A DNA stretch of 64,000 bases from NCBI GenBank assembly GCA_964584895.1, contig CAZPAW010000001.1, positions 337,504-401,503 on the forward strand, given 5' to 3'. This document shows positions 8,812 through 63,712 of this stretch, piece after piece (the stretch's first letter is position 1; the number at the start of each line of letters is the position of its first letter). Both the position numbers and the translations under genes were made by a program. This stretch comes from an uncultured Candidatus Saccharibacteria bacterium (GTDB lineage Bacteria > Patescibacteriota > Saccharimonadia > Saccharimonadales > JAGQNJ01). The notes below the pieces were generated by a model. It searched no databases. It had not been told where the DNA came from and saw nothing but the letters and a program-made list of their open reading frames with translations.

Positions 8812-10980
8812 GTGGTTGAGGAATTTCTTAAAGACTTAAATACAGAACAGCAAAGAGCAGTAAAATCTACTGAAGGTCCTTTATTGATTTTGGCGGGTGC
8901 CGGTAGTGGCAAAACAAAAACACTTACAAATCGAATCGCCTATATCATTGATAAGAACCTCGCTACTCCCTACAACATTTTAGCTGTAACCTTTACCAAT
9001 AAAGCGGCAGAAGAGATGCGGCAACGAGTCGCGGTATTGCTTGGGCATCGATCAGATGACAGGACTTTTATGCCTTACATGGGAACGTTTCACAGTATCT
9101 GTGTTCGATTACTACGTCAGGACGGAGATCATATTGGCGTTCCCAAAAATTTTGTGATTTTTGATGAATTAGATAGAGTCGCTTGCGTCAAAAAGATTTC
9201 AAAAGAATTATCGATCGATGAAAAAAGTTTTCCGGCCCGCAAGCTATCAGGTGTGATTTCGAGCGCAAAAAATGATTTGGTTACGCCTGATGAAATGATC
9301 TCATCAGCTAACAGTCCAACCCAAAAAGAAGCGGCTCGCGTCTATCCTATTTATCAGAAATATTTGATTGACGCTATGGCGCTTGATTTTGACGATTTGA
9401 TTGCAAAAACCGTAAAGCTATTATCAGAAAATGATGAAGTTAGACAGAAGTGGCAAAATCAATTTAAATACGTGATGATTGACGAGTATCAGGATACTAA
9501 CGTTGCGCAATATAAGTTAATAAAACTACTGATAAATGAACGAAATAATATTGCTGTAGTAGGCGATGATTGGCAATCGATTTATTCATGGAGAGGCGCT
9601 GATTTTAAGAATATTCTAAATTTTGAAAAAGACTACAAAAACTGTCAGGTTATAAAATTAGAACAAAATTATCGAAGCACAAAACATATATTAGATGCTG
9701 CACATGGCGTAATTGCAAAAAATGCTCATAGATCTACTAAAAAACTTTGGACAGATTTGGGCGATGGTTTGCCTGTGCAGATAATACCGGTTCATTCTGA
9801 ACGAAGTGAGGGTGAGGCGATTGTTAGAGTGATTCGAAATCAAGTTGACGGAAGGACAAGACAATACAAAGATTTTGCAGTGCTTTACAGAACAAACGCA
9901 CAAAGCCGTTCGCTTGAAGAGGTTTTTGTACATTATGGTATACCTTATAGAATCGTTGGCGGTGTTAGATTTTATGACCGCAAAGAGATTAAAGATATTA
10001 TTGCTTACCTGAGATTAATTTATCAACCAGAAGATATAATTAGTTTTGAAAGAGTTGTAAATATTCCAGCTAGAGGTGTTGGGGCAAAATCACTCATTAA
10101 TTTTAATTCATGGAGATTAGACAATAGAGTCTCTCTGGATGATGCTTTATCGAACGTTGTCAATTGTAGCGCCATAACAGCCAAAGCTAGAAAGGGATTG
10201 GCGGATCTTGCCGACATACTGCAGTCACTTCGCACGGTAATGTCAGACAGTAGTGTATCTGGACTAGTTGATGCACTTGTGCGACGGCTGGATTATATAA
10301 ATTATCTTGATGATGGGACTATTCAGGCACAGTCAAGACAAGAAAATGTCAAAGAATTAATGTCGGTAGCCTCAGAATACGAGACTTTAGGCTTGGATGG
10401 CTTTTTGGAAGAAGTGTCGTTACTGACTAGTGCTGACAATAATGACAGCCAAAAAGACTGTGTTACTTTAATGACTTTGCATGGGGCTAAAGGGCTGGAA
10501 TTTCCCGTAGTGTTTATGGCTGGTATGGAGGAAACAATTTTTCCACATAGCAGAGCGCTTTATGATGCGACCGAAATGGAAGAAGAGCGACGATTGTGCT
10601 ATGTCGGTATGACTCGTGCAAAACAAGAGCTATATCTGTTATTTGCATCCAGTCGAATGCTATATGGTGGAGTGCAACACAACCCTCCTAGTCGATTTTT
10701 GTCTGATGCTAATCCGAAGTTGATGAATACTCATCAATCTCCTATGTTCAATAGTACTTATGAGAGTGAATATGCTCCTAGGCCAAAAGAGGCTATGAGC
10801 GTCTCGAGCGAGCCTCGCTATGTGCCTGATCTAGATATTGGCGACGGAATTAATCATTCTGTTTTTGGAAAAGGGATAGTAGTTCACATGGATGGAGATA
10901 TTGCGACGATTAGCTTTAATGGACGAGGTACAAAGCAATTAGATATCAGTCTCGCGCCTTTAGAAAAGATCGACAGCTAA
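8812..10980 (+). CDS. uvrD: ATP-dependent DNA helicase, UvrD/PcrA family
   Basis: 722 aa, GTG start. Helicase motifs AGAGSGKT, DEYQDTN, EQNYRST, TLHGAKGLEFPVVF, YVGMTRAK. Confidence 0.9.
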   Translation: MVEEFLKDLNTEQQRAVKSTEGPLLILAGAGSGKTKTLTNRIAYIIDKNLATPYNILAVTFTNKAAEEMRQRVAVLLGHRSDDRTFMPYMGTFHSICVRLLRQDGDHIGVPKNFVIFDELDRVACVKKISKELSIDEKSFPARKLSGVISSAKNDLVTPDEMISSANSPTQKEAARVYPIYQKYLIDAMALDFDDLIAKTVKLLSENDEVRQKWQNQFKYVMIDEYQDTNVAQYKLIKLLINERNNIAVVGDDWQSIYSWRGADFKNILNFEKDYKNCQVIKLEQNYRSTKHILDAAHGVIAKNAHRSTKKLWTDLGDGLPVQIIPVHSERSEGEAIVRVIRNQVDGRTRQYKDFAVLYRTNAQSRSLEEVFVHYGIPYRIVGGVRFYDRKEIKDIIAYLRLIYQPEDIISFERVVNIPARGVGAKSLINFNSWRLDNRVSLDDALSNVVNCSAITAKARKGLADLADILQSLRTVMSDSSVSGLVDALVRRLDYINYLDDGTIQAQSRQENVKELMSVASEYETLGLDGFLEEVSLLTSADNNDSQKDCVTLMTLHGAKGLEFPVVFMAGMEETIFPHSRALYDATEMEEERRLCYVGMTRAKQELYLLFASSRMLYGGVQHNPPSRFLSDANPKLMNTHQSPMFNSTYESEYAPRPKEAMSVSSEPRYVPDLDIGDGINHSVFGKGIVVHMDGDIATISFNGRGTKQLDISLAPLEKIDS

Positions 10981-12346: not shown

Positions 12347-12531
12347 TTCTGGCTCATGCACCACGGCGACCTGCTTTCTGGCAGAGCCAGAAACACTGTC
12401 GCCGTTCTCGGCACATTGCGATAGTTTTCGCTGCGGGGCGCAGTCGCCGTACCTAGCGTACGACTCCCTTACACTCCACGTGAAGAACTATTGAACTGCA
12501 CTCGAGCGCAAGACCCAGAATCGATTTTTTT
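12347..12531 (+). ncRNA. candidate structured RNA / 3'-UTR element of unknown class (GC-rich)
   Basis: Starts right after the stop codon and is locally GC-rich in an AT-rich genome. Nested stems GGCGAC(12365-70)/GTCGCC(12398-403) enclose TTTCTGGC(12375-82)/GCCAGAAA(12386-93). A competing 9-bp pairing is TTCTGGCTC(12347-55)/GAGCCAGAA(12385-93). CTGCG-GGG-CGCAG sits at 12431-43, and the element ends CCCAGAATCGATTTTTTT. Confidence 0.3.
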
Positions 12532-14154: not shown

Positions 14155-14541
14155 GGGGCTGAAATTATGCTCGACGTAGGACTTTATCAGTTAGATCGGC
14201 AGGTCGCTTGTCAGCGTATAGGCAACTATTTTAACTGCAAATGTTAAAAAACAGCTAGTAGCAGCTTTTGGAAATTTCCAAATGCCTAAACTAGCGCCCG
14301 CTTTAGTTTAACTAAAGCCACGCGGTAGAGTGACATCAGATAACATTACCAACGTGTCATATCATCTGGTTGCCTAAGTTTCGTTATTCGAAAACTTAGT
14401 AAGACAATAGGATATGCGAGACTTAATTTTTTTGTCTGTTTATAGATTGGGTTTCTAAGAAAAAGTAAAATAGACTATGCCTGTAGAAGACTAACAAAGA
14501 TAATCCAGCGGACCGGAGTGCAATTCTCCGCAGCTCCACCA
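14155..14541 (+). ncRNA. ssrA: transfer-messenger RNA (tmRNA)
   Basis: 5' GGGGCTGAAATTATGCTCGACG. The 3' end GGACCGGAGTGCAATTCTCCGCAGCTCCACCA gives a T-arm plus an acceptor stem pairing GGGGCUG/CAGCUCC with a G3:U pair and a terminal ACCA. An internal tag-like ORF runs GCA AAT GTT ... CTA GCG CCC GCT TTA GTT TAA (tentatively ...KLAPALV*, resume codon uncertain). Confidence 0.85.
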
Positions 14542-17498: not shown

Positions 17499-18134
17499 AT
17501 GGAAGATCAAAGTAGACCAAATAATATGGGAACACTAGATGGTTTTAAACCGTTTGAGACGCCAAAACATAATGAATATGAAAAACCAACACCAACACCA
17601 GAATCAACACAAGAATTGCCAAAAGAACCAGTAATTCATGAGACGCGCTCACCGTCACTGTCCAGTGATGGTGACAGATCTATACCTGTGGTTAAAGTGT
17701 TAAGCGTTAGAGGGTTAGAATATCTAATGATGTCTGTGGGATTGTGGCTAGGTGCAGGAGGGTTACTTTGGGGTGTTTTAACGGCATTAAACGGAGGAAC
17801 ATCGTTTACTATACTTGCGATGCCAGCTTCTTTGGCTTTAGTTGGAGTTTTAGTTTTTGCTGGGTTTTTTATTAGGCTAAAAAAAGCAGAATTGAAAGAT
17901 CCAAGCCTAAGACTTGATTCTTCAAAAAGAAGAACATCGCAAATAACACAATTACTAGCGTTTTTTGTGTTGTTAGTTAATTTAATAACTTTTGTCTATA
18001 TTTGTTTTACTAAGCTTGGTGGTGAAAATAGTATCTCGCTTGGAAAAGCTGCTATAAATCTGTTGGTAGTCACAGTTATTGCCGGCGGAATACTATTATA
18101 TTACTGGTTAGATGAACACAAGGTTAGAAAGTAG
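17499..18134 (+). CDS. hypothetical multi-pass membrane protein
   Basis: 211 aa. Hydrophilic N-terminus followed by about four hydrophobic helices. Confidence 0.55.
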   Translation: MEDQSRPNNMGTLDGFKPFETPKHNEYEKPTPTPESTQELPKEPVIHETRSPSLSSDGDRSIPVVKVLSVRGLEYLMMSVGLWLGAGGLLWGVLTALNGGTSFTILAMPASLALVGVLVFAGFFIRLKKAELKDPSLRLDSSKRRTSQITQLLAFFVLLVNLITFVYICFTKLGGENSISLGKAAINLLVVTVIAGGILLYYWLDEHKVRK

Positions 18135-18140
18135 AGGCTA

Positions 18141-18992
18141 GTGATGAAAAAATATTACATTGGAGTTGTAGTAATTATACTTATGACTTTTGGCTTTGTG
18201 GGCTACACGGTTTATCTTGGGCTGGAAAGCAAGAGTGATGTCGAGACGCAAAAATCAGCCGAAGAAATTTCTAAAAAGTTAAATGAATACGTAAAAAACA
18301 ATCAAAAAATTCCTGAATCTTTGAGCGAAGTAGGTGCAAACGATGTACCGTCGACAATTGCGTACACTAAACTTTCAGATTCTCAGTATAAATTTTGTGT
18401 AACCTATAAATCCGCTAGTGGGTATTATGATTCTGGTATTTCAGGTGTAGTAACGGGTGTGACGGCCAACAGTTATCCTGATGAATATTACGAAAGTCCG
18501 TATCCATCAGACTATCCTGAGCCTGATCTGTATATAGATAGCTATCATAAAAAGGGTGAAAACTGCACAACTGTAAAGCCTTATTTTAGTAATTCATATA
18601 GTCCTCCATCATATATAGATAATCTTCCAAATGGTGCCGAGGATTCATCATCAACAAACAGTACTAACGTCGACGATAACTCCAGAGAAGCGGATATTAA
18701 TGCTTTGCATTCAAAGATGGAATACTACTATGCGCTTTACGGATATTATCCAACACTAGATAATTTGAATGATAGTAATTGGCGAACATTGAATATGAAA
18801 GGTTTGTCAGACGAGGCCCTGCAAGATCCAGAAGGATCTAGTAAAAAATTATCTTCGACCGCAAAAACAAATACTTATGTTTACAGCGTAAAACCAGTCG
18901 GGTGCGACAACAAAACAAAAGATTGCACAAGCTACAAATTAACCGCAACCCTAGATAGCGGTAAAGAATATTCTAAGAATTCTCTAAATTAA
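18141..18992 (+). CDS. membrane-anchored protein with pilin-like C-terminal domain
   Basis: 283 aa with an N-terminal TM. The C-terminal segment DINALHSKMEYYYALYGYYPTLDNLND...DPEGS...YVYSVKPVGCDNKTKDCTSYKLTATL resembles type IV pilin/pseudopilin globular domains. The canonical G/FTLIE prepilin signal is absent. Confidence 0.5.
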   Translation: MMKKYYIGVVVIILMTFGFVGYTVYLGLESKSDVETQKSAEEISKKLNEYVKNNQKIPESLSEVGANDVPSTIAYTKLSDSQYKFCVTYKSASGYYDSGISGVVTGVTANSYPDEYYESPYPSDYPEPDLYIDSYHKKGENCTTVKPYFSNSYSPPSYIDNLPNGAEDSSSTNSTNVDDNSREADINALHSKMEYYYALYGYYPTLDNLNDSNWRTLNMKGLSDEALQDPEGSSKKLSSTAKTNTYVYSVKPVGCDNKTKDCTSYKLTATLDSGKEYSKNSLN

Positions 18993-19042
18993 AATATTAG
19001 ATATCGTGAAATATTTTTACATTCTTTCTGGTATTATAGTTC

Positions 19043-24397: not shown

Positions 24398-24649
24398 ATG
24401 GCAACTAATCTATTTGTAGGTTCATTGTCTTGGAACGTGACTGACGATCAGCTTAAAGAGTTGTTCGAAACAGTTGGTAAGGTTGTATCTGCAAAAGTTA
24501 TAACTGACCGAGACACTAATCGATCAAAAGGTTTTGGGTTTGTAGAAATGGGTTCAGATGATGAAGCCAAAGCTGCAGTCGACCAGTTGAATGGTAAAGA
24601 GCTTGACGGCCGACCAATCAACGTAAGCGAAGCCCGCCCTCGCGATTAA
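24398..24649 (+). CDS. RRM-type RNA-binding protein
   Basis: 83 aa. RNP2 LFVGSL and RNP1 KGFGFVEM. Strong RBS AAGGAG. Confidence 0.9.
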   Translation: MATNLFVGSLSWNVTDDQLKELFETVGKVVSAKVITDRDTNRSKGFGFVEMGSDDEAKAAVDQLNGKELDGRPINVSEARPRD

Positions 24650-24680
24650 TTTCAGATTTATCTGAAATTAATACAATCAA

Positions 24681-24709
24681 GACCTCGGAGCGATCCGGGG
24701 TCTTTTTTC
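24681..24709 (+). terminator. rho-independent terminator
   Basis: GACCTCGG-agcgat-CCGGGGTC stem (one G:U) followed by TTTTTT. Confidence 0.75.
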
Positions 24710-54685: not shown

Positions 54686-54810
54686 ATAGTTTTTACTTCA
54701 CGATTCCGATTGTATTAGACCAATAAAACTAAATTCATTCTTTCTTACGAGCTAAAGCTCGCGCCATATTACTTTGTGCCGACAAAGTAATACAAAACTC
54801 CTGGCTAGAC

Positions 54811-54927
54811 ACTAAAACACTACTAGGCTGTTAGTTGTTTGTACAATGCTTAGCAGAACTTGGGCTTTGCCCTCAAACAGCTGCACGCAATAATTGTACA
54901 AACCACAACACCCTAATCGGTTTTAGT
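54811..54927. repeat. long imperfect intergenic hairpin (copy A of the hairpin family) between convergent genes
   Basis: ACTAAAAC(54811-18)/GTTTTAGT(54920-27). GTTGTTTGTACAAT(54834-47)/ATTGTACAAAC-C-ACAAC(54893-909). Inner GGGC-ttt-GCCC. A separate perfect 11-bp hairpin TATTACTTTGT-gccg-ACAAAGTAATA lies at 54767-54792. Confidence 0.5.
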
Positions 54928-55015
54928 GCTTTTAGGCAAGAAACAACACCCAAAACACTGCATCTATTCAGGAAAAAATCAGAGACCCATTAAACGATAA
55001 ACAAAAATTTCTAAA

Positions 55016-55522
55016 CTAAAAAATGCAGTTGATGTCGTCTTCATCGAACGTAGAGTTGATGGCGACATCGGCGGCAAACTGAGATGATGCTATAAAGTCA
55101 TGGAGTTCGCCAAATTCTGCCAATTGGCGATGTGCCTTTATTGCGGCTTTTTGTTGGCGGGTAGAAAGCCCAGCGGTTATTCCAGTCAATCCTTGAATGG
55201 GCGGTGGATCTGTTACTAAATCAATGTAACATGATAGTTTGACTGTGCAACTAGCACATACGCCTCGAGCGACTTCTACTCCTTTGGCGTTGCCGGGGCC
55301 CGGGTGCATAATTTTAGGGTTTGTTAACTTTCTGCAAAGAGCGTCTTTTTTCCATCTGGAATCTATGGTTAACGGGTTTACTTTTATTGACATTGTACTG
55401 CCTCTTGCTGGGGATGGCGGGGCTGTTCGTTCAGGGATATCACTGATAGTGAATGCTTCGTCAATAATTTCAAATTCTGCCATGATAAAACAGATAATAT
55501 AACTATCTAGGACTTTGTTCAA
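55016..55522 (-). CDS. WhiB-like (Wbl) Fe-S cluster-type regulator homologue
   Basis: 168 aa (TTG 55522; alternative ATG 55483). W..DALC-x25-CASCTVKLSC gives the C-Xn-C-X2-C-X5-C spacing of WhiB proteins, followed by G[I]TAG.S..Q resembling the GVWGG turn. Confidence 0.6.
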   Translation of the reverse strand: MNKVLDSYIICFIMAEFEIIDEAFTISDIPERTAPPSPARGSTMSIKVNPLTIDSRWKKDALCRKLTNPKIMHPGPGNAKGVEVARGVCASCTVKLSCYIDLVTDPPPIQGLTGITAGLSTRQQKAAIKAHRQLAEFGELHDFIASSQFAADVAINSTFDEDDINCIF

Positions 55523-55555: not shown

Positions 55556-55584
55556 TTGACAAATATAGTGTAATGCCCTATAAT
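55556..55584 (+). promoter_or_regulatory. consensus sigma-70 promoter
   Basis: Perfect TTGACA (55556-61), 17-nt spacer, perfect TATAAT (55579-84). About 185 nt upstream of the 55772 ATG. Confidence 0.6.
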
Positions 55585-55771: not shown

Positions 55772-56362
55772 ATGTTTTTAAGAAAAACATTAGAGCAAAA
55801 ACTACCAGTCAGAGATGACGAAGTAAGGTTGCCAGATTCAGTCTCTAGAGGTATCTTCAGAGGCTCATATCTTTTGCCTACAAAAATAACAAAAATTGAA
55901 AACAAAAGAAACAATAGACCCCGCACTATGGATGCATATCCTTGGCAGAGAAAAGTTACAAAAACCTATTCCGACGGATCAAAAATCTTTAAAGGAGATA
56001 GTTGGGATGACATAGTATACTCAGAAGCAATTAGCTACGAAGATTTAGATATAGCTAACAGCCCTGCTGGTTTGCGTCGAGCGACACGAATTGAAAGCGT
56101 TGCTAGACGGATAAAAGCCGTAGCATTGGGTGTCGGTGCAGCCGCATTAGTGGGATTACTTACAATCGGTGTACTAAGCGATTCATCTGATAGTAGTAAT
56201 GAGAGTCCAGAACTTCCGGCATGCGAAAGTGTTGCCGATAATGGCGAATCATTACTTGGGATAGCAGACGATCAAATAGATCCTGCTAATCAACTTGGGC
56301 AAACTGTTTGTTCGATTAATGACGATAATTACCTTGTCGTTATGCCAACAGAACCTCAATAA
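55772..56362 (+). CDS. hypothetical bitopic membrane protein
   Basis: 196 aa, RBS AAGGAGG. Central TM (AVALGVGAAALVGLLTIGVL) and a short Cys-containing C-terminal ectodomain. Confidence 0.5.
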   Translation: MFLRKTLEQKLPVRDDEVRLPDSVSRGIFRGSYLLPTKITKIENKRNNRPRTMDAYPWQRKVTKTYSDGSKIFKGDSWDDIVYSEAISYEDLDIANSPAGLRRATRIESVARRIKAVALGVGAAALVGLLTIGVLSDSSDSSNESPELPACESVADNGESLLGIADDQIDPANQLGQTVCSINDDNYLVVMPTEPQ

Positions 56363-56407
56363 ATTTAACTAAATATATAACAACGTCTTAAGGAGGCGTA
56401 AATTAAC

Positions 56408-56977
56408 ATGGAAAAATTAAAACCAAAAAAATCATTAACAAGAGCAGTGATATTAACTCTAGGGCTGGCAGTAGCAAGTGCTTGTTCGGCCGAGTCCACT
56501 ACTCATACAGGCGAAACGACCGCATCTGATGTTTTTACAACATTGGATGTTGAGGTGATTAGACCTGGACAAAGCGCATTTAGCGGTTTATCAACTGATA
56601 ACGAAGAGCACGAGGCGATTACAGACGATTTAGATATTGTCGATGATCAACACCCTAATAGTTGGGATGATGATGGTGCACCACTTATCGGTCAGTTACC
56701 GGTAAGAGTTGACGCCCACCAATCCTTTACGAATGAAGCAAAAGCTGGTTTTAGCAATGATATTGGTTGTGATAGCTTTCCGCTTGATCTTCAAGGATTA
56801 GATAGCTCTGAGGTATATGTTGGCGCCGTAGCGCTTAGCGATTCTGATGATGATAGGGTACTAATTAGCTGGCCACGAACTGACGGCAAGCCTGCTAATC
56901 ATATTTTGATGTGCATGGATGACACTCGTGAGCCAGCCGATGGCGTAGTGCTGTTTGTATCCGATCAACAACGTTAA
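56408..56977 (+). CDS. putative secreted protein / lipoprotein, acidic
   Basis: 189 aa, RBS AAGGAGG. Signal peptide ending LAVASAC (imperfect lipobox). Confidence 0.55.
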   Translation: MEKLKPKKSLTRAVILTLGLAVASACSAESTTHTGETTASDVFTTLDVEVIRPGQSAFSGLSTDNEEHEAITDDLDIVDDQHPNSWDDDGAPLIGQLPVRVDAHQSFTNEAKAGFSNDIGCDSFPLDLQGLDSSEVYVGAVALSDSDDDRVLISWPRTDGKPANHILMCMDDTREPADGVVLFVSDQQR

Positions 56978-57040
56978 TATTCTATAATAAAACTAATAAG
57001 TCATATATTGACTATAATGCAATAGTGTTGTTAAGATATT

Positions 57041-57655
57041 ATGATGATAGATATTGAACGCGGTGAGGCGACGCCTCCACTTTTTGTAATGCGAACAGGG
57101 CAAATTTATTCATCGCCTTATGGTTTTTTTGATGAATTAGCCAAACGTCTCGATGCCCATATGATAGTCCCAGAAGACATCAGGCAAGAGTTTGTTGAAA
57201 AATATGATGTACCAGAGGGGCATGAAAGGTCTGCTCCCGTCAGAGAGATGACAAGGATTATTGCCGAGCAGCAAGTTGTTGAAGGTTTAGAAAAGGGTGA
57301 CAACGTCGTCTACGAGGGTCTTCTAAATCAGGCTAATCGTAGACAGTATTTACGAGAAGTTGCAGAGAGTTGCGGGGCTTTAACCCTGTTAATTGTTACA
57401 AAATCATCATTTGATGATATTTCAAAGCGGATACACCAGCGTGCCAGTGGCGAAATTGATGGCGTAGAGCCAAAAGATCAAGAGTGGATTGATAGAAAAA
57501 AATTTGGTTATCATAGAGTACAAAGTTCGATTGAATGGCCAAATAATGAAGCACATTTATCATTGCGATGCGATTTTGGCAGAGACACCGAAGAATTGTT
57601 TCGGGTTGTTGAAAAACGGATTGAAGACATCTACTGGAGCGCCCGAAATAAATAA
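57041..57655 (+). CDS. hypothetical protein, P-loop-kinase-like fold without a Walker A motif
   Basis: 204 aa. The central and C-terminal parts (NVVYEGLLNQANRRQYLREVAESCGALTLLIV...RIHQR) resemble AAA_33/zeta-toxin-type kinases. The expected GxxxxGK[ST] position reads MRTGQIYSSPYG. Weak assignment. Confidence 0.4.
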   Translation: MMIDIERGEATPPLFVMRTGQIYSSPYGFFDELAKRLDAHMIVPEDIRQEFVEKYDVPEGHERSAPVREMTRIIAEQQVVEGLEKGDNVVYEGLLNQANRRQYLREVAESCGALTLLIVTKSSFDDISKRIHQRASGEIDGVEPKDQEWIDRKKFGYHRVQSSIEWPNNEAHLSLRCDFGRDTEELFRVVEKRIEDIYWSARNK

Positions 57656-57724
57656 GTTTAATTAAACGCTAACCTAGAAGTAATATCATGCTTATGGATT
57701 TAATGATTGTAAGGAGTACACTTT

Positions 57725-58198
57725 GTGTATATGACAAACCCAGAGTTATTCGTACCAGATAATTATCTTGAACTATGTCAGGGCCTACAAGAGGTTATTG
57801 CATCGGTCCCGCCAGACGAACAAGACATAGCAGGTGCCAAAGTACGCGAAATGGCAGGCAAAGCTGTATATTTTGGTGAAAAAAAGCTAGAAGTAAGGAC
57901 CTTGGGTGCATATGCCTTGCCAGATGGACTAACGATGGAAAGCGATGTTTGGCCAACTGTTAGTTTTGGTGCAATGAGGCTACGGGGCGAACTAGCGCAA
58001 CTTGCCTATGCAAGAGTTGGGCGTGTTAGGTCGCTTATGTGGATGATGGTAGAACCCAAAGTGAGAGAAGCCAGTCCAACACCGTCAACTAACATATTTG
58101 ACGCAGAAGTTGCCAGACTGGGTTATAAAAATGATGTGCTTCGGCGACCGCTATATCTACCAGTAGGAATGATCGAATCTGTTATCATTGCTGCCTAA
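57725..58198 (+). CDS. hypothetical protein
   Basis: 157-aa ORF (GTG 57725 or ATG 57731). Confidence 0.45.
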   Translation: MYMTNPELFVPDNYLELCQGLQEVIASVPPDEQDIAGAKVREMAGKAVYFGEKKLEVRTLGAYALPDGLTMESDVWPTVSFGAMRLRGELAQLAYARVGRVRSLMWMMVEPKVREASPTPSTNIFDAEVARLGYKNDVLRRPLYLPVGMIESVIIAA

Positions 58199-58293
58199 GT
58201 TAATATTTTGGTTAAGTTAATTGGTGATTAATTTTTACTACTATAAGATCGCAAACTTGACAAAGGGCCTAATAGTTGTAAGATACTATTATT

Positions 58294-58920
58294 ATGAGAC
58301 TAAAAGAATCAGTGGCTGAACTACTGACACCTCAATCTCAAGAACTTATTCGTAGAGAAGCTGCTGATTTTCAGACACCCCTAGGCTATACTTTTTCTTT
58401 AGCTGTAAACAACATAGGTAAGCCATTGGCAACTAAACTAACTACTGCATCAGAGATCATTGAACCCTACGATGCGGATTTACATGAGGTTGTTGATCGA
58501 GAATCAGACAATAGAGATGCATTTATCAGAGGTGGCTTATTGGCGGTTAGACTTTGTTATGAATATTTTGGGCCAAATTTTCAGGATGAAATGAGCGATT
58601 ATGAACACGATCTGATACCTCTTCCTGATACAAATAATTCACTTTATCCAGAATTAAGAAAAAATAGAACTGAAGCAATAATTGAATTTGCTGAAGATGG
58701 CTGGAGGGTTGCGGAGCCAGAATTCGGTGATTTATTCGAACAATGGGAAGATATGATTGTGCCTAAAATGTCCGCACAATATTATTTACGGCCAGGTTTT
58801 GGTTATATTGTTAAGCTCGCATCAAAAGTCGAAGAAGTGATAGCTGATAAATTAGAGGCTATAGCCGTTGCGCCACCAGATGCTTGGGATGATGCATTAA
58901 CAAGAGAGCTTTCGCTTTAA
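58294..58920 (+). CDS. hypothetical acidic protein
   Basis: 208-aa ORF, last gene of the co-oriented ORFan block. Confidence 0.45.
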   Translation: MRLKESVAELLTPQSQELIRREAADFQTPLGYTFSLAVNNIGKPLATKLTTASEIIEPYDADLHEVVDRESDNRDAFIRGGLLAVRLCYEYFGPNFQDEMSDYEHDLIPLPDTNNSLYPELRKNRTEAIIEFAEDGWRVAEPEFGDLFEQWEDMIVPKMSAQYYLRPGFGYIVKLASKVEEVIADKLEAIAVAPPDAWDDALTRELSL

Positions 58921-58956
58921 CTAAAACTTGTAACTTTCTTACTATCTTATCGATTA

Positions 58957-59260
58957 GCGCGTTTTCATACTTTCTTAATCAGCAAAAATCAACATTCTTT
59001 TTTAGAGCCAATTTCTCATACTTTTCTCAGTAGCAAGAAAAGTATGCAAAAGTGCCATGCTTCCTGTTTTTCGTGATGTAACTTCCAGTCAATGCCTACA
59101 ACAGCCTGCGGAATGCAAGCACCCCGAATAGTTCTTTAAGTGTAAGTATTCGGGGGAGTCCTCGGCTGATCAGTTGTAGGATTGACGAAGTTACTCAAGA
59201 AAAACAGAGGCAATTCAACTGCAGTCAGTGCAACATCATAACAACCCGGACGCCCAAATA
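58957..59260 (+). repeat. composite intergenic repeat, copy B (block 1 + three-tier hairpin 59088-59186 + short motifs)
   Basis: Colinear with 62651-63100. The identical 26-mer CTCATACTTTTCTCAGTAGCAAGAAA is at 59015-40 and 62713-38. Hairpin CATACTTTTC/GAAAAGTATG at 59017-46. CTCAAGAAAAACAGAGGC at 59194-211. CCCGGACGCCC at 59245-55. Confidence 0.7.
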
Positions 59261-59393
59261 AACACAAACAAGGAGATATAAAACCAAAGTCCTAGTAAAC
59301 CCTCTCTTAAGCGCGTAAGTTACAACTGATAAATTTTACAACAGTTTACGTCTTCGGTAACATGTAAAATGTATGCATAAGCATTGAGGGGTA

Positions 59394-62300
59394 GTGTTTG
59401 TGCTAATATTGGAAAAACCAAACAAGTATATAAGCGCGATAAAAATTATTTTATTCATTAGTTTGTTATTAACGGGTTTAACTTTATTAAACCCAAGAAC
59501 AACCTATGCATTCAGTGGGGGTAGTGGCGCATCGGATGACCCTTATCAAATCACAACTCCAGCAGAACTAGCTAGCATGACAAGCTACTTGGGTTCTGGA
59601 AATTCAGGCAAGTACTTCAAGTTAATGAACGATATCGACCTTGACGTTTCGCCGTATAACACGGGTAGCGGCTGGACACCTATTGGTAACAGCAGTAGCA
59701 ATTTTTACGGCAAGTTTGATGGCGACGGGCATAGCATCTCCGGATTGTATATCAATAGGACTACTAGCTATGGTGGCTTGTTTGGCTATACGCAAGGCGC
59801 AACAATCCAAAACGTTAGTTTGACGGGCGCCAACGTAACAAGCACCGCTACTTATACCGGCATCCTAGTGGGCAGAGCATACAACAATAATACGATAAGC
59901 GGTGTCTCTGCCAGTGGCACCATAAGCTCTAGTAGTAACTATGTCGGCGGCTTAATCGGCTCGATGCATTCTGGTGTAATTACCAACGCAAATTCCTCAG
60001 CAGCCGTGACTGGCGCTCAGTACGTTGGCGGTTTGCTTGGTGAGATAAATGGCACAACCTTGACCAACCCGGATATTAGTGATTCTTATGCTACAGGCGA
60101 TATCAGGGCGGACTCATACATTGGCGGCTTTGTGGGCTACAAGGTTTATGGAGCTGTAAGCCGATCTTACGCAAGCGGCGATATTTTGGGCGATCGCACC
60201 GGAGGGTTAACTAATGATTACGGTGGTGGCTTTGTCGGGGCTGTATGTTACGGCTCAATTGTCAGATCATATGCTACTGGTAATATATATGGTGATAACG
60301 AGCTGGCAGGGTTCGGCGGTCTTAGCCATAACTGTAGCGGTACTACCATTACCGACAACTATGCGCGTGGCGATGTCTATCCTTCGGTATCTGGCACCGG
60401 TGGCGGGTTTATGAGATATAACTATCTTGCCACGGTGCAACGTAATTTTTCTACAGGCTTAGTAGATGGTCAAACTAATGCAGGTTTCATATATTGGGAT
60501 GTTGGTTGTGGCGGTTGTTCAAATAATTATTGGGATACCCAAACCAGCGGTCAGAGTACCGGAGGACTTTTCGCTGGTGGCGGTGCTACAGGTAAAAATA
60601 CTCTCCAAATGAAGACCGTTGACACCTATACTACATCCAATGCTTGGGATTTTGTCGGCAACCCGATTAATGATGTTGCTAATAATGATTACTGGGACAT
60701 CAATGGTACTACCAACGACGGTTATCCATTTCTGGCTTGGCAAAGCGCCAATTCTAATCCAGATACTCCCGATATAAGTGCGACAAACTCTGATTTTACA
60801 GTCGGCGATTGGCAGCAGGACACCACACCAACTTTTTCAATGACCTTGGCCGACGATAACGTAAGCGACACTGTTAAATATACGATTGAAGTAGACGATT
60901 CCAGCGATTTTGGCAGCCCGGTAGTAGAGTACACGTCGGCCTTAGCCGCACAAGGCGAGGTGAGTTTTACGCTTGGACAAGCAGCTGGCAGTGGTACCTA
61001 TACCACGGGCAGTGAAGGACAGACACTCGGCGAGGCACAGTACTATTGGCGCGTTAAATCTATTGACGAAAACGACGCCGAAAGCTCGTATACCACGGCA
61101 AACAGTGGAGGTGTCGCGTTTGGAGTTGACACGGCTGTACCTACTACTCCAGGAACTCCGTCGACCACTACGCCAACATCAGATACTACGCCCACATGGA
61201 CCTGGACGGCTAGCACCGATAGCGGGTCAGGCCTATCAAGCAGCCAAACATATATACTTTCGTATTCTCAAGACGCTGATTTTGATTCCTACACCTCTAC
61301 AGATGTTTTAACCAATAGCTTTACCCATGGCACCCCGCTCGGTGAAGGCACATGGTATGTACGCGTAGCAGCGCTTGATAATGTCGGTCGCACATCGACG
61401 ATATCCGATACCGCGACAATTTTAGTTGATACATCGTCGCCAACTGTGCCGGGGACACCGAGTATGCCGGCAAGTGCAACAAATGATACTACGCCCACAT
61501 GGACCTGGACGGCCAGTACCGATAGTGGCGCGGGACTACACTCTACGCCGTATACATTTTATTTCTCCATGGATTCTGATTTTAGTAGTGGGTCATTTTC
61601 GACCGCGAGCTCAAATAGCTTCACTCACTCTTCGCCCTTAAGTGAAGGCAGGTGGTATGCTCGATTAACGGCGCGCGACGCCGTTGCTAATACCTCTGCC
61701 AATTCATCATCGGGATCGGTATATATTGATACAACTGCACCAACAACCCCTGGCAAACCTGCACCTTCAACGAGTAATTCAGATGATACGCCATCATGGA
61801 CCTGGACGGCTAGCACAGATAGCGGATCTGGCCTTGCCAGTAGCGAAAAATACACAATTCAGTGGAGTAAAAGCAGCACTTTTGCAAGTGGAGTATATAC
61901 CACCACCAGCAATACTAACTCATTTACTCACAGCAGTTCGCTAGCAGATGGCACCTGGTATTTTAGGGTAAAATCAAACGACTCAGCTACAAACCAATCT
62001 GGCTACAGCACAAAAGGCAGTATTACTATTGATACGACAATAGAGACTCAAGATAGCGAAGCTAGTTCTTCAGATTCCCAAGCAACTGATGCTACCATCG
62101 AATTTTTTAGCGCAATTATTGACAACACAAAACAAGACCAGCAAAAACCAGTCACGATTATTTTGGACGATTTTCCAGAATACCGATCTGCAGGGAAAAA
62201 GATCAGAGTTAACGAAGGGCAATTACTATATTTTTGCGCGAACAATACAAAATCATGCAAAGATTCAAACAAGCATTCTATAACCATAGATTCAATAGAT

Positions 62301-62630
62301 TTAATCAATAAAACTGTTACCGTGACGGTTCGCTCAACACCGCAAACGTACACATTTGCTTTAAACGACCAAAAGAAAGTAGATGTAGATTACGATGGGG
62401 AACCCGACATTGAAATATCGCTCAGTTATTTAGGGATTGATCACGCCGGATTTAAATTCAAAGGTTTGGCTGCAGCATCTTCGGGTGCAGTCCAAACCAC
62501 CGAAAGCAACAATACTGTCAATAAATCTAACAGCACTGCTCGGCAGTGGGTAGCAGTAGCTGTAGTTGTTATAGTTGGTATATTGGTTACAAAGACGATT
62601 AAAGCCAAGAGATTACGCGCCAGTAAATAG
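59394..62630 (+). CDS. large surface protein: signal peptide, GLUG-motif repeats, four FN3-like modules, C-terminal TM anchor
   Basis: 1078 aa, GTG start with GAGGGG RBS. Signal peptide ...NPRTTYA/FSGG. Repeated Y[VI]GG[LF][IVL]G...G.I.N GLUG-type motifs. About 100-aa modules carry DTTPTWTWTASTDSGSGL and GTWY.RV. C-terminal WVAVAVVVIVGILV + KAKRLRASK. Confidence 0.8.
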   Translation: MFVLILEKPNKYISAIKIILFISLLLTGLTLLNPRTTYAFSGGSGASDDPYQITTPAELASMTSYLGSGNSGKYFKLMNDIDLDVSPYNTGSGWTPIGNSSSNFYGKFDGDGHSISGLYINRTTSYGGLFGYTQGATIQNVSLTGANVTSTATYTGILVGRAYNNNTISGVSASGTISSSSNYVGGLIGSMHSGVITNANSSAAVTGAQYVGGLLGEINGTTLTNPDISDSYATGDIRADSYIGGFVGYKVYGAVSRSYASGDILGDRTGGLTNDYGGGFVGAVCYGSIVRSYATGNIYGDNELAGFGGLSHNCSGTTITDNYARGDVYPSVSGTGGGFMRYNYLATVQRNFSTGLVDGQTNAGFIYWDVGCGGCSNNYWDTQTSGQSTGGLFAGGGATGKNTLQMKTVDTYTTSNAWDFVGNPINDVANNDYWDINGTTNDGYPFLAWQSANSNPDTPDISATNSDFTVGDWQQDTTPTFSMTLADDNVSDTVKYTIEVDDSSDFGSPVVEYTSALAAQGEVSFTLGQAAGSGTYTTGSEGQTLGEAQYYWRVKSIDENDAESSYTTANSGGVAFGVDTAVPTTPGTPSTTTPTSDTTPTWTWTASTDSGSGLSSSQTYILSYSQDADFDSYTSTDVLTNSFTHGTPLGEGTWYVRVAALDNVGRTSTISDTATILVDTSSPTVPGTPSMPASATNDTTPTWTWTASTDSGAGLHSTPYTFYFSMDSDFSSGSFSTASSNSFTHSSPLSEGRWYARLTARDAVANTSANSSSGSVYIDTTAPTTPGKPAPSTSNSDDTPSWTWTASTDSGSGLASSEKYTIQWSKSSTFASGVYTTTSNTNSFTHSSSLADGTWYFRVKSNDSATNQSGYSTKGSITIDTTIETQDSEASSSDSQATDATIEFFSAIIDNTKQDQQKPVTIILDDFPEYRSAGKKIRVNEGQLLYFCANNTKSCKDSNKHSITIDSIDLINKTVTVTVRSTPQTYTFALNDQKKVDVDYDGEPDIEISLSYLGIDHAGFKFKGLAAASSGAVQTTESNNTVNKSNSTARQWVAVAVVVIVGILVTKTIKAKRLRASK
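60751..62040 (+). repeat. in-gene tandem modules (~300-nt period, 4 copies)
   Basis: Near-identical stretches GATACTACGCCCACATGGACCTGGACGGC[T/C]AG[C/T]ACCGATAG[C/T]GG at 61182 and 61485, a related copy at 61782, and a degenerate first module from about 60751. Confidence 0.8.
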
Positions 62631-62650
62631 TCTTACGGAATCTAAAGATT

Positions 62651-63100
62651 CGCGTGTTTCATGCTTTCTCAATCAGAAAGAATACGGTGTTCTTTTCTAA
62701 AGAACCAAATCACTCATACTTTTCTCAGTAGCAAGAAATTCGCTGTACAGCGCAATGCAAAAGCTCGGGTTATTTCAAAAATTATCATGCCACTCTTAGA
62801 GTTTCACAATTTCAACTTTTGGTAGCAAAAGTTGAGCAAAAACCACCAAGCAAATAAAAGAACTAGATGAAAGTTTTCACAACAAACCTCGTGCCTGTGG
62901 AATGCAAGCACCCCAAATGGTTTAATTAGAGTAATTATTTGGGGATGTCCTCGGCAATGATTCGAGATTTGTTATAAAAACTATCTCTGTTTTTCAGGGC
63001 ATGGATCCAAACTACAATAATCATAAACGAAGTTAATCAGGGCAAGCCGGACGCCCAAGTCAAACAGCATCTGCTCAGGAAAAATCAGAGGCAGATGAAA
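62651..63100 (+). repeat. composite intergenic repeat, copy C (block 1 + hairpins + three-tier hairpin 62872-62982 + short motifs)
   Basis: See copy B. Extra perfect hairpin CAACTTTTG-gtag-CAAAAGTTG at 62813-34. TCAGGGCAAGCCGGACGCCC at 63037-56. CATCTGC-tcaggaaaaatcagag-GCAGATG at 63068-97. Confidence 0.7.
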
Positions 63101-63151
63101 CGCAAAAAAACTCTAAAAAATTGGTCCATAAATTGTACATCCTGCTAGTGC

Positions 63152-63181
63152 TTGCAATTTAGATATCGATGAAACGATAAT
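63152..63181 (+). promoter_or_regulatory. putative promoter
   Basis: TTGCAA (63152-57), 18-nt spacer, GATAAT (63176-81), 25 nt upstream of the 63206 ATG. RBS AAAGGAG. Confidence 0.35.
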
Positions 63182-63205
63182 AGAACTATCTAAAGGAGAA
63201 AAAAT

Positions 63206-63532: not shown

Positions 63533-63712
63533 AAGATTACTCGCCATCTCAACGAGCATCCCAAAAATTCGAAGACAGGTAACATCTTCTCAGGAAAAAT
63601 CTGAGACACAAATAAGGGCATAATTTTAAAATAAAATACCCCACTTCTAAAATCCCCTCCTAGAACTTCTTGCTACATAGGAGTAAAATATATTTAAACC
63701 AAAGGAGTAAGT

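Follow-up and report, generated by a model that had tools for sequence, protein, structure and literature searches.

A surface-protein gene between repeat-bearing spacers

Within a 64,000-nucleotide stretch of a Candidatus Saccharibacteria genome (contig CAZPAW010000001.1; the window), a 3.2-kb gene encodes a surface protein of 1,078 amino acids that opens with a signal or transmembrane segment at the N terminus, continues with GLUG repeats and three Ig/FN3-like repeats, and ends in a C-terminal transmembrane anchor. The G+C content of this adhesin gene is atypical (0.48–0.50 versus about 0.40). The intergenic spacers before it (spacer A) and after it (spacer B) are 470–575 nt long and contain several repeat modules each. 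The initial annotation had described them as colinear mosaics in direct orientation that bracket the gene (58957–63100), and this description is borne out, as all of its elements were found in the window sequence where it had placed them.

Block 1 (83 nt in spacer A and 88 nt in spacer B) aligns at 58958–59040 and 62651–62738 with 79.5% identity over 88 columns (E = 5e-14) and contains the 26-mer CTCATACTTTTCTCAGTAGCAAGAAA, identical at 59015–59040 and 62713–62738, the 24-mer core of which matches twice in the window with none expected. A unit of about 20 nt is present in two copies per spacer (58966/59017 and 62660/62715). Both spacers also share a 63-nt hairpin core; the core sequence GGAATGCAAGCACCCC occurs exactly twice in the window, a count reached in none of 100 shuffles. 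Two boxes follow: CCGGACGCCCAA at 59246 and 63047, and CTCA[A/G]GAAAAA(T)CAGAGGC at 59194 and 63074 (none expected). The second box (box2) has four plus-strand copies in the window, at 54968, 59195, 63075 and 63590, and 54807–54940 holds a further long hairpin of this family, the third. The features are as follows.

54748–54806, plus strand: small hairpins M0 (CGAGCTAAAGCTCG, 54748–54761) and M1 (ATTACTTTGTGCCGACAAAGTAAT, 54768–54791) with the tail AAAACTCCTGGCT; read from the sequence
54807–54940, plus strand: long hairpin of type T3, core at 54856–54880, GAAC-[TTGGGC..GCCC]-TCAAACAG; read from the sequence, regular-expression match
54954–54986, plus strand: arm motif of box2 type, GCATCTATTCAGGAAAAAATCAGAGAC
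58957–59015, plus strand: left part of block 1 in spacer A, a degenerate M2-like hairpin (58964–58990) and small hairpin module M1b (58992–59015)
59016–59060, plus strand: M2 hairpin CATACTTTTCT-CAGTAGCA-AGAAAAGTATG, then CAAAAGTGCCATGC; holds the 26-mer common to spacer B
59060–59212, plus strand: long three-tier hairpin of type T1, core at 59104–59166; fold, covariation and covariance-model match
59226–59257, plus strand: orphan arm motif of CCGGACGCCC type, box at 59246–59255, without a partner arm
59272–59324, plus strand: module M4b
59394–62630, plus strand: surface-protein gene (1,078 amino acids), between the spacers and not part of the repeat family
62651–62738, plus strand: block 1 in spacer B, an M2-like hairpin (62658–62685), M1b (62686–62713) and the 5′ half of M2 (62714–62738)
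62739–62795, plus strand: variant 3′ part of M2 (TTCGCTGTACAGCGCAATGCAAAAGCTCGGG...); alignment with locus L008
62796–62861, plus strand: ancestral spacer common to locus L035, with a small hairpin TCAACTTTTGG-TAG-CAAAAGTTGA (62812–62835)
62862–62998, plus strand: long hairpin of type T2, core at 62893–62955; fold and covariance-model match
63037–63093, plus strand: tandem orphan arm motifs, CCGGACGCCC type (63037–63057), then TCAAACAG and box2 type (63059–63093)
63583–63608, plus strand: orphan arm motif of box2 type, ACATCTTCTCAGGAAAAATCTGAGAC, in the next spacer

M0 and M1 directly follow the stop codon of a 96-amino-acid gene. The promoter predicted for the adhesin gene (59335–59363) comes after M4b. 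The modules precede the sigma-70-type promoters predicted for the downstream genes, which makes the shared 5′-UTR role that had been suggested for the blocks unlikely.

Structure and conservation of the long hairpins

The long hairpin of spacer A (59060–59215) has a fold energy of −64.6 kcal/mol (z = −7.4), and its counterpart in spacer B (62862–62998) has a z score of −2.5. A covariance model, R1, scores 86.7 bits for T1 (59060–59212) and 86 bits for T2 (62862–62998). Long hairpins span about 140–160 nt. Their stems are variable, and three parts are conserved: the closing helix (GCCTGYGGA / TCCTCGGC), an internal loop that is asymmetric (AAYG(A)CAAGCR) and the apical loop (TTAGAKTAA). T1 and T2 are distinguished from T3 by a swapped apical hairpin, and T2 from T1 by basal arms that are flipped relative to the core; the 5′ basal arm of T2 in spacer B is degenerate. 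In the hairpin alignment 93.8% of cells are paired, and double changes affect 8 of 47 pairs, compared with 3.3 in shuffles (8 was reached in none of 500) and 0–2 in slid controls. The hairpin is kept up by compensatory changes, without overall strand asymmetry: fold energies are alike for sense and antisense, and the alignment holds 8 G·U cells versus 6 A·C cells. In L035 the T2 ortholog (9256–9327) retains the loops, and its stems are replaced by paired alternatives.

The two boxes do stand in swapped order in the two spacers, as reported, but they are not distinct: they align with each other as a single, diverged hairpin-arm motif, and represent two sequence variants of the long hairpin's 3′ basal arm. 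The box CTCAAGAAAAACAGAGGC (59194–59211), for example, is the 3′ basal arm of the T1 hairpin, with its partner at 59063–59076. The order is swapped because some copies are orphan arms, which may be remnants left after the rest of a hairpin decayed.

The loops and stems raise the possibility of a functional cis-acting RNA in 3′ UTRs or intergenic regions, bound by protein through the internal and apical loops, controlling mRNA stability, termination or processing, and copied to several loci. We consider this possible, although on the unlikely side. Conserved loops with covarying stems are as expected, and so is an element more conserved than synonymous sites: at the orthologous topA–def site it is 91.4% identical, versus 85% and 65% at third codon positions. 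A hairpin is also kept at the orthologous site downstream of the 94/96-amino-acid gene and beside topA. By our own tally, 13 of 17 copies share their orientation with a neighbouring gene, a weak bias among copies that are not independent. On the plus strand, no terminator-like site is predicted between the stop codon of the 208-amino-acid gene and the spacer A hairpin, and read-through transcription into the hairpin is therefore likely. One G·U pair in the apical helix (columns 76/92) is conserved on the sense strand.

Several observations point the other way. Strand asymmetry is absent overall, and pairs of the long lower helix change on both sides or break, with none varying through G·U alone. 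Some copies are antisense to their neighbours, in inverted pairs, and copies are commonly truncated or represented by orphan arms. The element lacks a promoter of its own, and no U tract follows the long hairpins, as it would in an intrinsic (Rho-independent) terminator. A canonical terminator of this organism occurs elsewhere in the window, at 24681–24708. Rfam 15 gave no credible match in spacer A (best E ≥ 2, far below gathering scores; at E ≤ 10 only snoRNA and miRNA noise of 16–18 bits), and tmRNA was the only family to reach its gathering score in the window. Relatives at about 75% Def identity lack the family, with the exception of one T3 copy.

Distribution of the modules and gene-content differences

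The modules were found at 80–100% identity in at least six other species-level genomes, beside neighbours that include topA/def, a radC-like gene, a methyltransferase gene and tRNA-Met. The exact core pattern occurs at 5 loci in 3 Saccharibacteria metagenome-assembled genomes, one of which (CAZEED01) has at least 3 exact-core copies, and walks along orthologous genes revealed additional copies. Every copy is intergenic, at unrelated loci across at least seven species-level genomes including that of the window, as in families of interspersed palindromes; flanking genes at matched loci are unrelated, while the modules are 80–95% identical. The window itself contains only three long hairpins in 64 kb, all within its last 10 kb.

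Individual modules recur in the same way. M1 is seen again after topA in L007, L023 and L021, and also in L008, L011 and L017; M1b (GTTCTTTT..AAAGAAC CAAAT) is present in L011, and M4b lies directly upstream of the radC-like gene in L009. The M2 24-mer is identical in L008, L010, L023, L027 and L031, and the variant 3′ part of M2 follows the M2 copy in L008 as it does in spacer B (62714–62761 versus L008 366–319, 85.7%). The T3 hairpin at 54807–54940 is homologous to L009 4954–5136 and matches in architecture the T3 copies in L010, L011, L017, L021 and L023. Two composite units are recurrent, M0-M1-long hairpin T3-arm motif and M2-long hairpin T1 or T2-arm motif, in the window and in L008, L009, L010, L011, L017, L021 and L023. 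Copies occur in both orientations, some as inverted pairs: L010 has a methyltransferase gene between T3 (plus) and T1 (minus), and the same T1/T3 block stands in opposite orientation in L017 and L023 (77% over 417 nt).

A purely local origin, by duplication at the insertion of the adhesin gene or by chance likeness of AT-rich sequence, with no wider family, would suit two copies only 3.7 kb apart in direct orientation around a gene of atypical composition. It is hardly credible, and we regard it as refuted by the wider family in other genomes. The modules are not specific to the adhesin gene, as at least six other genomes have them next to genes unrelated to it, and the spacer B hairpin is closer to the copies in L009 and L011 (93–96%) than to the spacer A hairpin (81%); chance likeness is excluded by the shuffles. 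The blocks do recur at unrelated sites, which largely agrees with what the initial annotation had said would speak against its proposals, except that all copies lie at gene boundaries.

Gene content often differs at these sites. At topA–def, L007 and L023–L026 have an element, L027 has a 146-amino-acid gene with only a relic of the element, and in L021 a T3 element adjoins topA, with four accessory genes; L016 and L019 have five to seven accessory genes and no element. Where L017 and L023 hold a T1/T3 pair, L007 has only a 20-nt M2 fragment. At the same sites relatives carry other genes or the relics of deletions, and no clean empty site was found. Short-read contigs also break inside elements: L003 and L004 start at window position 59108, L029 and L030 end at about 59045, L010 and L024–L026 start inside an element, and L017 and L027 end inside one. 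These breaks suggest further copies per genome.

The orthologous locus lacks the adhesin gene in L032 and L035 (92% and 85% relatives). In L035 a block of about 8 kb (approximately 54.76–62.80 kb) that includes the gene is missing, its right end being reached at about the variant M2 part (62739–62795); L035 keeps M0, the small hairpin (62810–62869 aligns to L035 at 88%) and, at the orthologous site, the downstream T2 hairpin. An L035/L032 indel junction falls inside the 3′ arm of T2. Within the species, no variant with the gene deleted or duplicated, as had been suggested, was seen: all five contigs that reach the region (L001–L005) carry adhesin sequence, and alignments to the window are gap-free for the contigs spanning the spacers. 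The idea that the repeats mark cassette boundaries has circumstantial support, in the atypical G+C content, the absence of the gene from these relatives and the presence of elements at gene-content edges elsewhere.

Taken further, this idea makes the hairpins recombination sites of exchangeable cassettes (attC-like folded DNA or single-strand transposase ends), with the adhesin gene as a cassette between two sites, which we regard as distinctly improbable. Elements do edge variable segments (the L035 block, the junction in the T2 arm, the topA–def hotspot and the methyltransferase gene between inverted copies), and the hairpins, being asymmetric and having conserved bases left unpaired, resemble sites recognized in folded single strands. 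However, neither the window ORFs scanned with Pfam (most of those of at least 100 amino acids; no transposase or integrase domain) nor the ORFs called beside copies at the fetched loci yielded an integrase, an HUH/Y1 transposase or any other recombinase. Integron attC sites have boxes R″-L″...L′-R′ with the consensus RYYYAAC / GTTRRRY, and by our own reading the arms (CTACAAC / GTTGTAG) lack it. The packed five-gene cluster at 55772–58920 has no such sites between its genes, each spacer has several modules and orphan arms instead of one site per gene, and the copies that flank the adhesin gene are only about 80% identical, with long hairpins of different subtypes.

Relation to known repeats and a reading of the arrays

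The repeat family is of the REP/BIME/BOX-like kind, probably new, and not specific to the surface-protein gene. Like REP/BIME sequences and REPINs, which are often co-transcribed at gene 3′ ends, it is extragenic and palindromic, forms mosaics of a few short modules in fixed order, and is partly conserved at orthologous sites with decaying copies. Among REPINs, doublets that form hairpins, one ‘master’ sequence dominates; in the present family the M2 24-mer is identical across several species-level contigs. In contrast, the hairpins here are 140–160 nt (35–40 nt for REP, about 100 nt for REPIN), conservation lies in the apical core with its loops rather than in the stem ends, the GTAG-type head is absent, and no RAYT (IS200/IS605-like Y1 transposase) occurs among the scanned window ORFs. 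REP/BIME elements number tens to hundreds per genome, whereas copy number here, in a 64-kb window and loci of at most 22 kb, appears low and clustered near accessory genes.

BOX elements of Streptococcus pneumoniae (boxA-boxB-boxC), and also RUP and ERIC, offer a parallel in their modular A-B-C organization with optional or repeated modules; they also share a stable predicted stem-loop, no coding capacity and intergenic positions near genes in a naturally transformable bacterium. Their sequences are unrelated, however, and here the modules are themselves hairpins, with subtypes that differ by a swapped apical hairpin (T1/T2 versus T3) and flipped basal arms. MITEs such as the Correia elements of Neisseria are likewise non-autonomous repeats with inverted ends (here the hairpin arms), in both orientations, at the boundaries of variable ‘minimal mobile element’-type regions, and can affect neighbouring transcripts. 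Unlike MITEs, the family showed no target-site duplication in the flanks, no terminal inverted repeats matching an insertion sequence, and no autonomous partner or mobilizing enzyme, and its mosaic structure blurs its boundaries. Neither a phage nor a plasmid match was found. Integron attC sites are also imperfect hairpins with unpaired bases and a variable centre, between accessory genes that run one way, but they are 57–141 nt, much shorter than these multi-module spacers, in which we found no R″/L″/L′/R′ boxes, no intI and not one site per cassette.

Two observations, the 91.4% identity at topA–def and the loops kept in the L035 T2 hairpin with its replaced stems, could instead reflect a selected, sequence-specific function. 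The long hairpins may be specific recognition sites, either folded-DNA recombination sites that delimit cassettes (integron-like, with no known integrase) or a new structured RNA domain that binds a protein and sits where accessory-gene transcripts end. Either version would fit the conserved loops and replaced stems in L035, as well as the elements at indel junctions; we hold this reading to be quite unlikely.

With moderate confidence, we favour spacers A and B as arrays of a clade-restricted, non-coding, hairpin-forming mosaic repeat family (REP/BIME/BOX/REPIN-like) at indel boundaries in Candidatus Saccharibacteria. The repeats persist in long spacers beside accessory genes, usually at the edges of gene-content differences. 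At the DNA level, their spread and rearrangement would come about through duplication and deletion, through inversion between their own arms, and through recombination or mobilization in trans. By analogy with REP/BIME and BOX, read-through transcripts from the upstream gene would carry stable stem-loops at their 3′ ends. The pair around the adhesin gene would be two members in direct orientation, with the gene probably gained along with such an array or inserted into one, and the identical 26-mer is a plausible crossover point. The lineage is reported to be naturally competent, and dispersed homology of this kind probably provides recombination anchors for the gain and loss of flanking genes.

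Repeated blocks in the spacers around the adhesin gene

The gene for the GLUG/FN3 surface protein (here, the adhesin) lies between two spacers, at the following positions.

59394–62630, + strand: adhesin gene, an open reading frame (ORF) of 1078 amino acids, flanked by spacers A and B
58921–59393: spacer A, upstream, 473 nt
62631–63205: spacer B, downstream, 575 nt

The initial annotation described colinear repeated blocks in these spacers, an observation that we confirm: pairwise alignment and blastn reproduced the blocks. Block 1, a direct repeat of 83 and 88 nt (58958–59040 versus 62651–62738; 79.5% over 88 columns, E = 5e-14), includes an identical 26-mer (59015–59040 and 62713–62738), the 24-nt core of which has two matches in the window where none is expected. 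The core GGAATGCAAGCACCCC occurs once in each spacer. The spacers also share a hairpin core (59104–59166 versus 62893–62955; 81%, E = 2e-11). Folding recovers the three-tier hairpin noted in spacer A (59060–59215, −64.6 kcal/mol, z = −7.4); its counterpart in spacer B is weaker (z = −2.5). Another long hairpin, belonging to a sister type, occurs at 54807–54940; a search of the 64 kb with a covariance model built on the hairpin core (filters off) finds only the two spacer copies. The repeats are limited to the last 10 kb of the window, a run of small genes most of which have no Pfam match. The window itself is chromosomal, with housekeeping genes, a tmRNA, a G+C content of ~0.40 and genes nearly all on the + strand. 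Matches to the core pattern, together with the closest proteins, place it in Candidatus Saccharibacteria.

The tmRNA gene (14155–14541, + strand; Rfam, 90 bits) is followed by a minus-strand gene for a sigma-70 family protein and by no integrase gene, and nothing therefore suggests that an island has inserted at the tmRNA.

Two boxes, CCGGACGCCCAA and CTCARGAAAAA(T)CAGAGGC, had been reported in swapped order in the two spacers. Each does occur once per spacer, in swapped order, but they are not distinct. The ‘second box’ has four + strand copies in the window (54968, 59195, 63075 and 63590). In spacer A, the box CTCAAGAAAAACAGAGGC is the 3′ basal arm of a long hairpin of type T1 and pairs with 59063–59076, and an alignment of 16 arm regions places the CCGGACGCCC box at the same position in the same arm motif (consensus, ACATCTGCTCAGGAAAAtCCrGAsGCCCA). 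In the related contigs L007 and L023, a T1 hairpin has the CCGGACGCCC variant as its real 3′ arm, with the matching change in the 5′ arm. Because the alignment places both boxes alike, they are one motif that is present two or three times per spacer. Several copies are orphans, with no partner arm.

59226–59257: orphan arm motif
63037–63057: orphan arm motif
63059–63093: orphan arm motif
63583–63608: orphan arm motif

A modular family dispersed in related genomes

Side-by-side comparison of copies resolves two recurrent composites of small hairpin modules (M0, M1 and M2) and long hairpins (T1, T2 and T3; ~140–160 nt). The first runs M0 (GAGCT..AGCTCG), M1 (ATTACTTTGTRYCRACAAAGTAAT), T3 and the arm motif; the second runs M2 (CATACTTTTCT-loop-AGAAAAGTATG CAAAAGTGCC), T1 or T2, and the arm motif. 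The ~20-nt unit of the initial annotation is the 5′ arm and loop of two M2-type hairpins. All long hairpins share the closing helix GCCTGYGGA / TCCTCGGC. T1 and T2 have the internal loop AAYG(A)CAAGCR, the apical stem CCCCRAAT/ATTYGGGG and the apical loop TTAGAKTAA, and differ in their basal arms: in T2, the A-rich arm and the T-rich arm are flipped, with respect to the core, by comparison with T1. T3 places GGAAC-[variable hairpin]-TCAAACAG in the same frame.

The exact pattern GGAATGCAAGCACC-N25–45-GTCCTCGG was found at five loci in three other Saccharibacteria metagenome-assembled genomes. The genes flanking these loci are unrelated (topA/def, a radC-like gene, a SAM methyltransferase gene, tRNA-Met and others), and the intergenic modules are 80–95% identical to those of the window. 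Orthologues of Def and of the ABC transporter led to further copies on species-level contigs (L017, L021, L023–L027, L031 and L035/L036). More distant relatives lack the modules, with one exception. Among relatives identified by their Def, one at 75% (L021) has a single T3 copy, adjoining topA, and one at 74% (L019) has no modules, nor does a relative with a 92% identical ABC transporter (L032). Three loci with adhesin homologues (L012, L014 and L015) also have no modules, and the repeats therefore do not travel with the adhesin gene family. L012, from a distant relative, carries (1–92 and 17848–18999) a UvrD gene with an intein (Hint/Intein_splicing) and a reverse-transcriptase gene near genes for an Mrr-like nuclease and an HTH protein; neither the intein nor the reverse transcriptase is related to the repeats.

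Database searches with spacer A returned no blastn match in phage and plasmid collections and nothing credible in Rfam at E ≤ 10; at gathering thresholds, Rfam found only the tmRNA in the whole window. The exact core pattern had no match in viral contigs or in JGI metagenome contigs. For the JGI contigs, coverage is probably incomplete: L023, a JGI contig found by a different path, contains the pattern. A second metagenome scan, with the M2 24-mer as the query, returned one contig, a duplicate of L023. Full-text literature searches found no account of such repeats in Saccharibacteria.

Hairpin maintenance and possible roles as RNA

In an alignment of seven T1 copies, 93.8% of the cells in 47 base pairs are paired, and 8 of the 47 pairs show two-sided changes (mean of 3.3 in shuffles, none of 500 of which reached 8; 0–2 in slid controls). 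The hairpin structure is thus maintained, and without a favoured strand: sense and antisense strands fold about equally, G·U cells are not commoner than A·C cells (8 versus 6), no pair in the long lower helix varies through G·U alone, and the strand-asymmetry test (RNA versus DNA) singled out no transcribed strand. An RNA would be no better an explanation of this than upkeep of a palindrome at the DNA level or selection of a DNA hairpin.

Further observations suggest some form of sequence-specific recognition. At the topA–def site, the 256-nt spacer is 91.4% identical and ungapped between L007 and L023; in the two flanking genes, identity at third codon positions is 85% (topA) and 65% (def). 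The T2 hairpin downstream of the 94/96-amino-acid gene is kept in L035, which is 79% identical to the window across the ABC-gene/96-aa-gene intergenic spacer and the 96-aa gene. There, conservation covers both loops and the closing helix; four double substitutions mark the apical stem, and the lower stems are wholly different, with pairing kept. The main rival explanation is a selected structured RNA with protein-bound loops, which we consider less likely. A shared 5′-untranslated role, as had been suggested, is unlikely, as the predicted promoters of the downstream genes come after the modules. On the + strand, the stretch from the 208-aa gene to the hairpin of spacer A has no predicted terminator-like site; by analogy, transcribed repeats would form stable stem-loops at the 3′ ends of mRNAs.

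Two further RNA candidates were rejected. The lack of a promoter and a terminator of its own argues against the element being an independent small-RNA gene, and the long hairpins have no U tract, as an intrinsic terminator would.

Elsewhere, a canonical intrinsic terminator (GACCTCGG..CCGGGGTC TTTTTT; 24681–24708) lies 3′ of a small gene with a putative RRM-type RNA-binding product (24399–24650), so the organism uses ordinary terminators at other sites. A G+C-rich, strongly self-complementary spacer between a G5/DUF348 gene and the next ORF (12347–12520; no Rfam match at E ≤ 1) may be an undescribed leader or small RNA. In relatives, two promoter-plus-structured-RNA-plus-terminator units upstream of small genes (75 and 80 aa) look like riboswitches or small RNAs.

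L035, ~9110–8945, − strand: promoter–RNA–terminator unit
L032, ~4600–4430 and 5640–5450, − strand: promoter–RNA–terminator unit

Repeats at the edges of gene-content differences

Between close relatives, elements are gained, lost, inverted and truncated, and the family lies at the edges of differences in gene content. The topA–def interval is a gene-content hotspot in the clade (L007, L016, L019, L021, L023 and L027), where the number of unrelated accessory genes (Fic, methyltransferase, HIT, LMWPc and others) ranges from zero to seven.

Contents of the topA–def interval in related contigs
L007, L023–L026: M0-M1-T1
L021: M1-T3 adjoining topA, and four accessory genes
L027/L028: 146-aa gene and a short T3 relic
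L016/L017, L019: five to seven accessory genes, no element

In L010, T3 (+) and T1 (−) form an inverted pair of ~240 nt with a methyltransferase gene between them; without cargo, the same T1/T3 pair has opposite orientations in L017 and L023, and L007 retains only a 20-nt fragment of it. Many short-read contigs begin or end within an element, which is what repeats exceeding the assembly k-mer in length would be expected to produce.

At the adhesin locus, L035 (ABC transporter 85% identical) has the 94-aa gene followed directly by M0, a small hairpin (TCAACTTTTGG..CAAAAGTTGA) and the T2 orthologue, and has no counterpart of 54.76–62.80 kb of the window, which holds a WhiB-like gene, five small genes, spacer A, the adhesin gene and the first half of spacer B. 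In L032, the island genes are partly different and include no adhesin. The junction of an indel that separates L035 from L032 falls within the T2 3′ arm. With its atypical G+C content (0.48–0.50), closest homologues (45–58% identical) in unrelated contexts, and absence from this locus in L035 and L032, the adhesin is probably a lineage-specific acquisition set in a pre-existing module array. The observed arrangement could have arisen by one crossover in the identical 26-mer, if incoming DNA carried a Block 1 that recombined with a chromosomal one.

The proposal that the flanking repeats delete or amplify the adhesin gene found no support in the consensus assemblies, from which rare variants could escape: all five same-species contigs that reach the region (L001–L005) contain adhesin sequence and align with the window ungapped, and contigs either carry the gene or break at a repeat. 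For the adhesin gene itself, the flanking repeats are generic and do not count as evidence of a dedicated switching mechanism.

Several neighbouring features were also recorded. The 168-aa WhiB-like ORF (55016–55522, − strand; E = 5e-5, just above the Pfam cut-off) has a homologue in L032. A perfect TTGACA-17-TATAAT promoter consensus (55556–55584, + strand) faces the five-gene cluster at 55772–58920, in which four genes have no Pfam match (one with a sub-threshold AAA_33); a PADLOC scan of small neighbouring proteins, including those of the cluster, had no matches. Within the adhesin gene, a 41-nt repeat (61182–61222 and 61485–61525, 95% identical) corresponds to repeated Ig/FN3-like modules (TPTWTWTASTDSGSGL). 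A 233-aa HNH endonuclease gene in L003 (5162–5863, − strand), just downstream of a DUF350 gene and ~1.2–1.9 kb past the window end, has no link to the repeats that we could find.

That the hairpins are cassette recombination sites would accord with their position at these edges, and is improbable: it lacks an enzyme and a consensus, and a scan of window ORFs detected neither a transposase nor an integrase domain. The attC class in particular was rejected because its consensus and integrase are both missing. We lean towards a new family of mosaic, palindromic intergenic repeats, restricted to the clade and of the same kind as elements familiar from other bacteria (REP/BIME, REPIN, BOX or Correia). 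Such a family would propagate and rearrange as DNA and would supply dispersed homology for recombination. Its unusual features are the long hairpins, the conservation of loops rather than stems, the swappable apical domains and flippable arms, and, for a very small genome, the consistent association with indel boundaries.

The genomes of Saccharibacteria and other Patescibacteria are very small and streamlined, and interspersed repeats in them are seldom discussed. If our reading is correct, a conserved modular hairpin family at the borders of gene-content differences would mark the entry and exit points of accessory genes, which here include a large surface protein of the host-contact type, and would explain why short-read assemblies break at these loci in the clade. 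The repeats would also be a testable candidate for recombination anchors or 3′-end RNA structures in an episymbiotic lineage that has become genetically tractable only recently.
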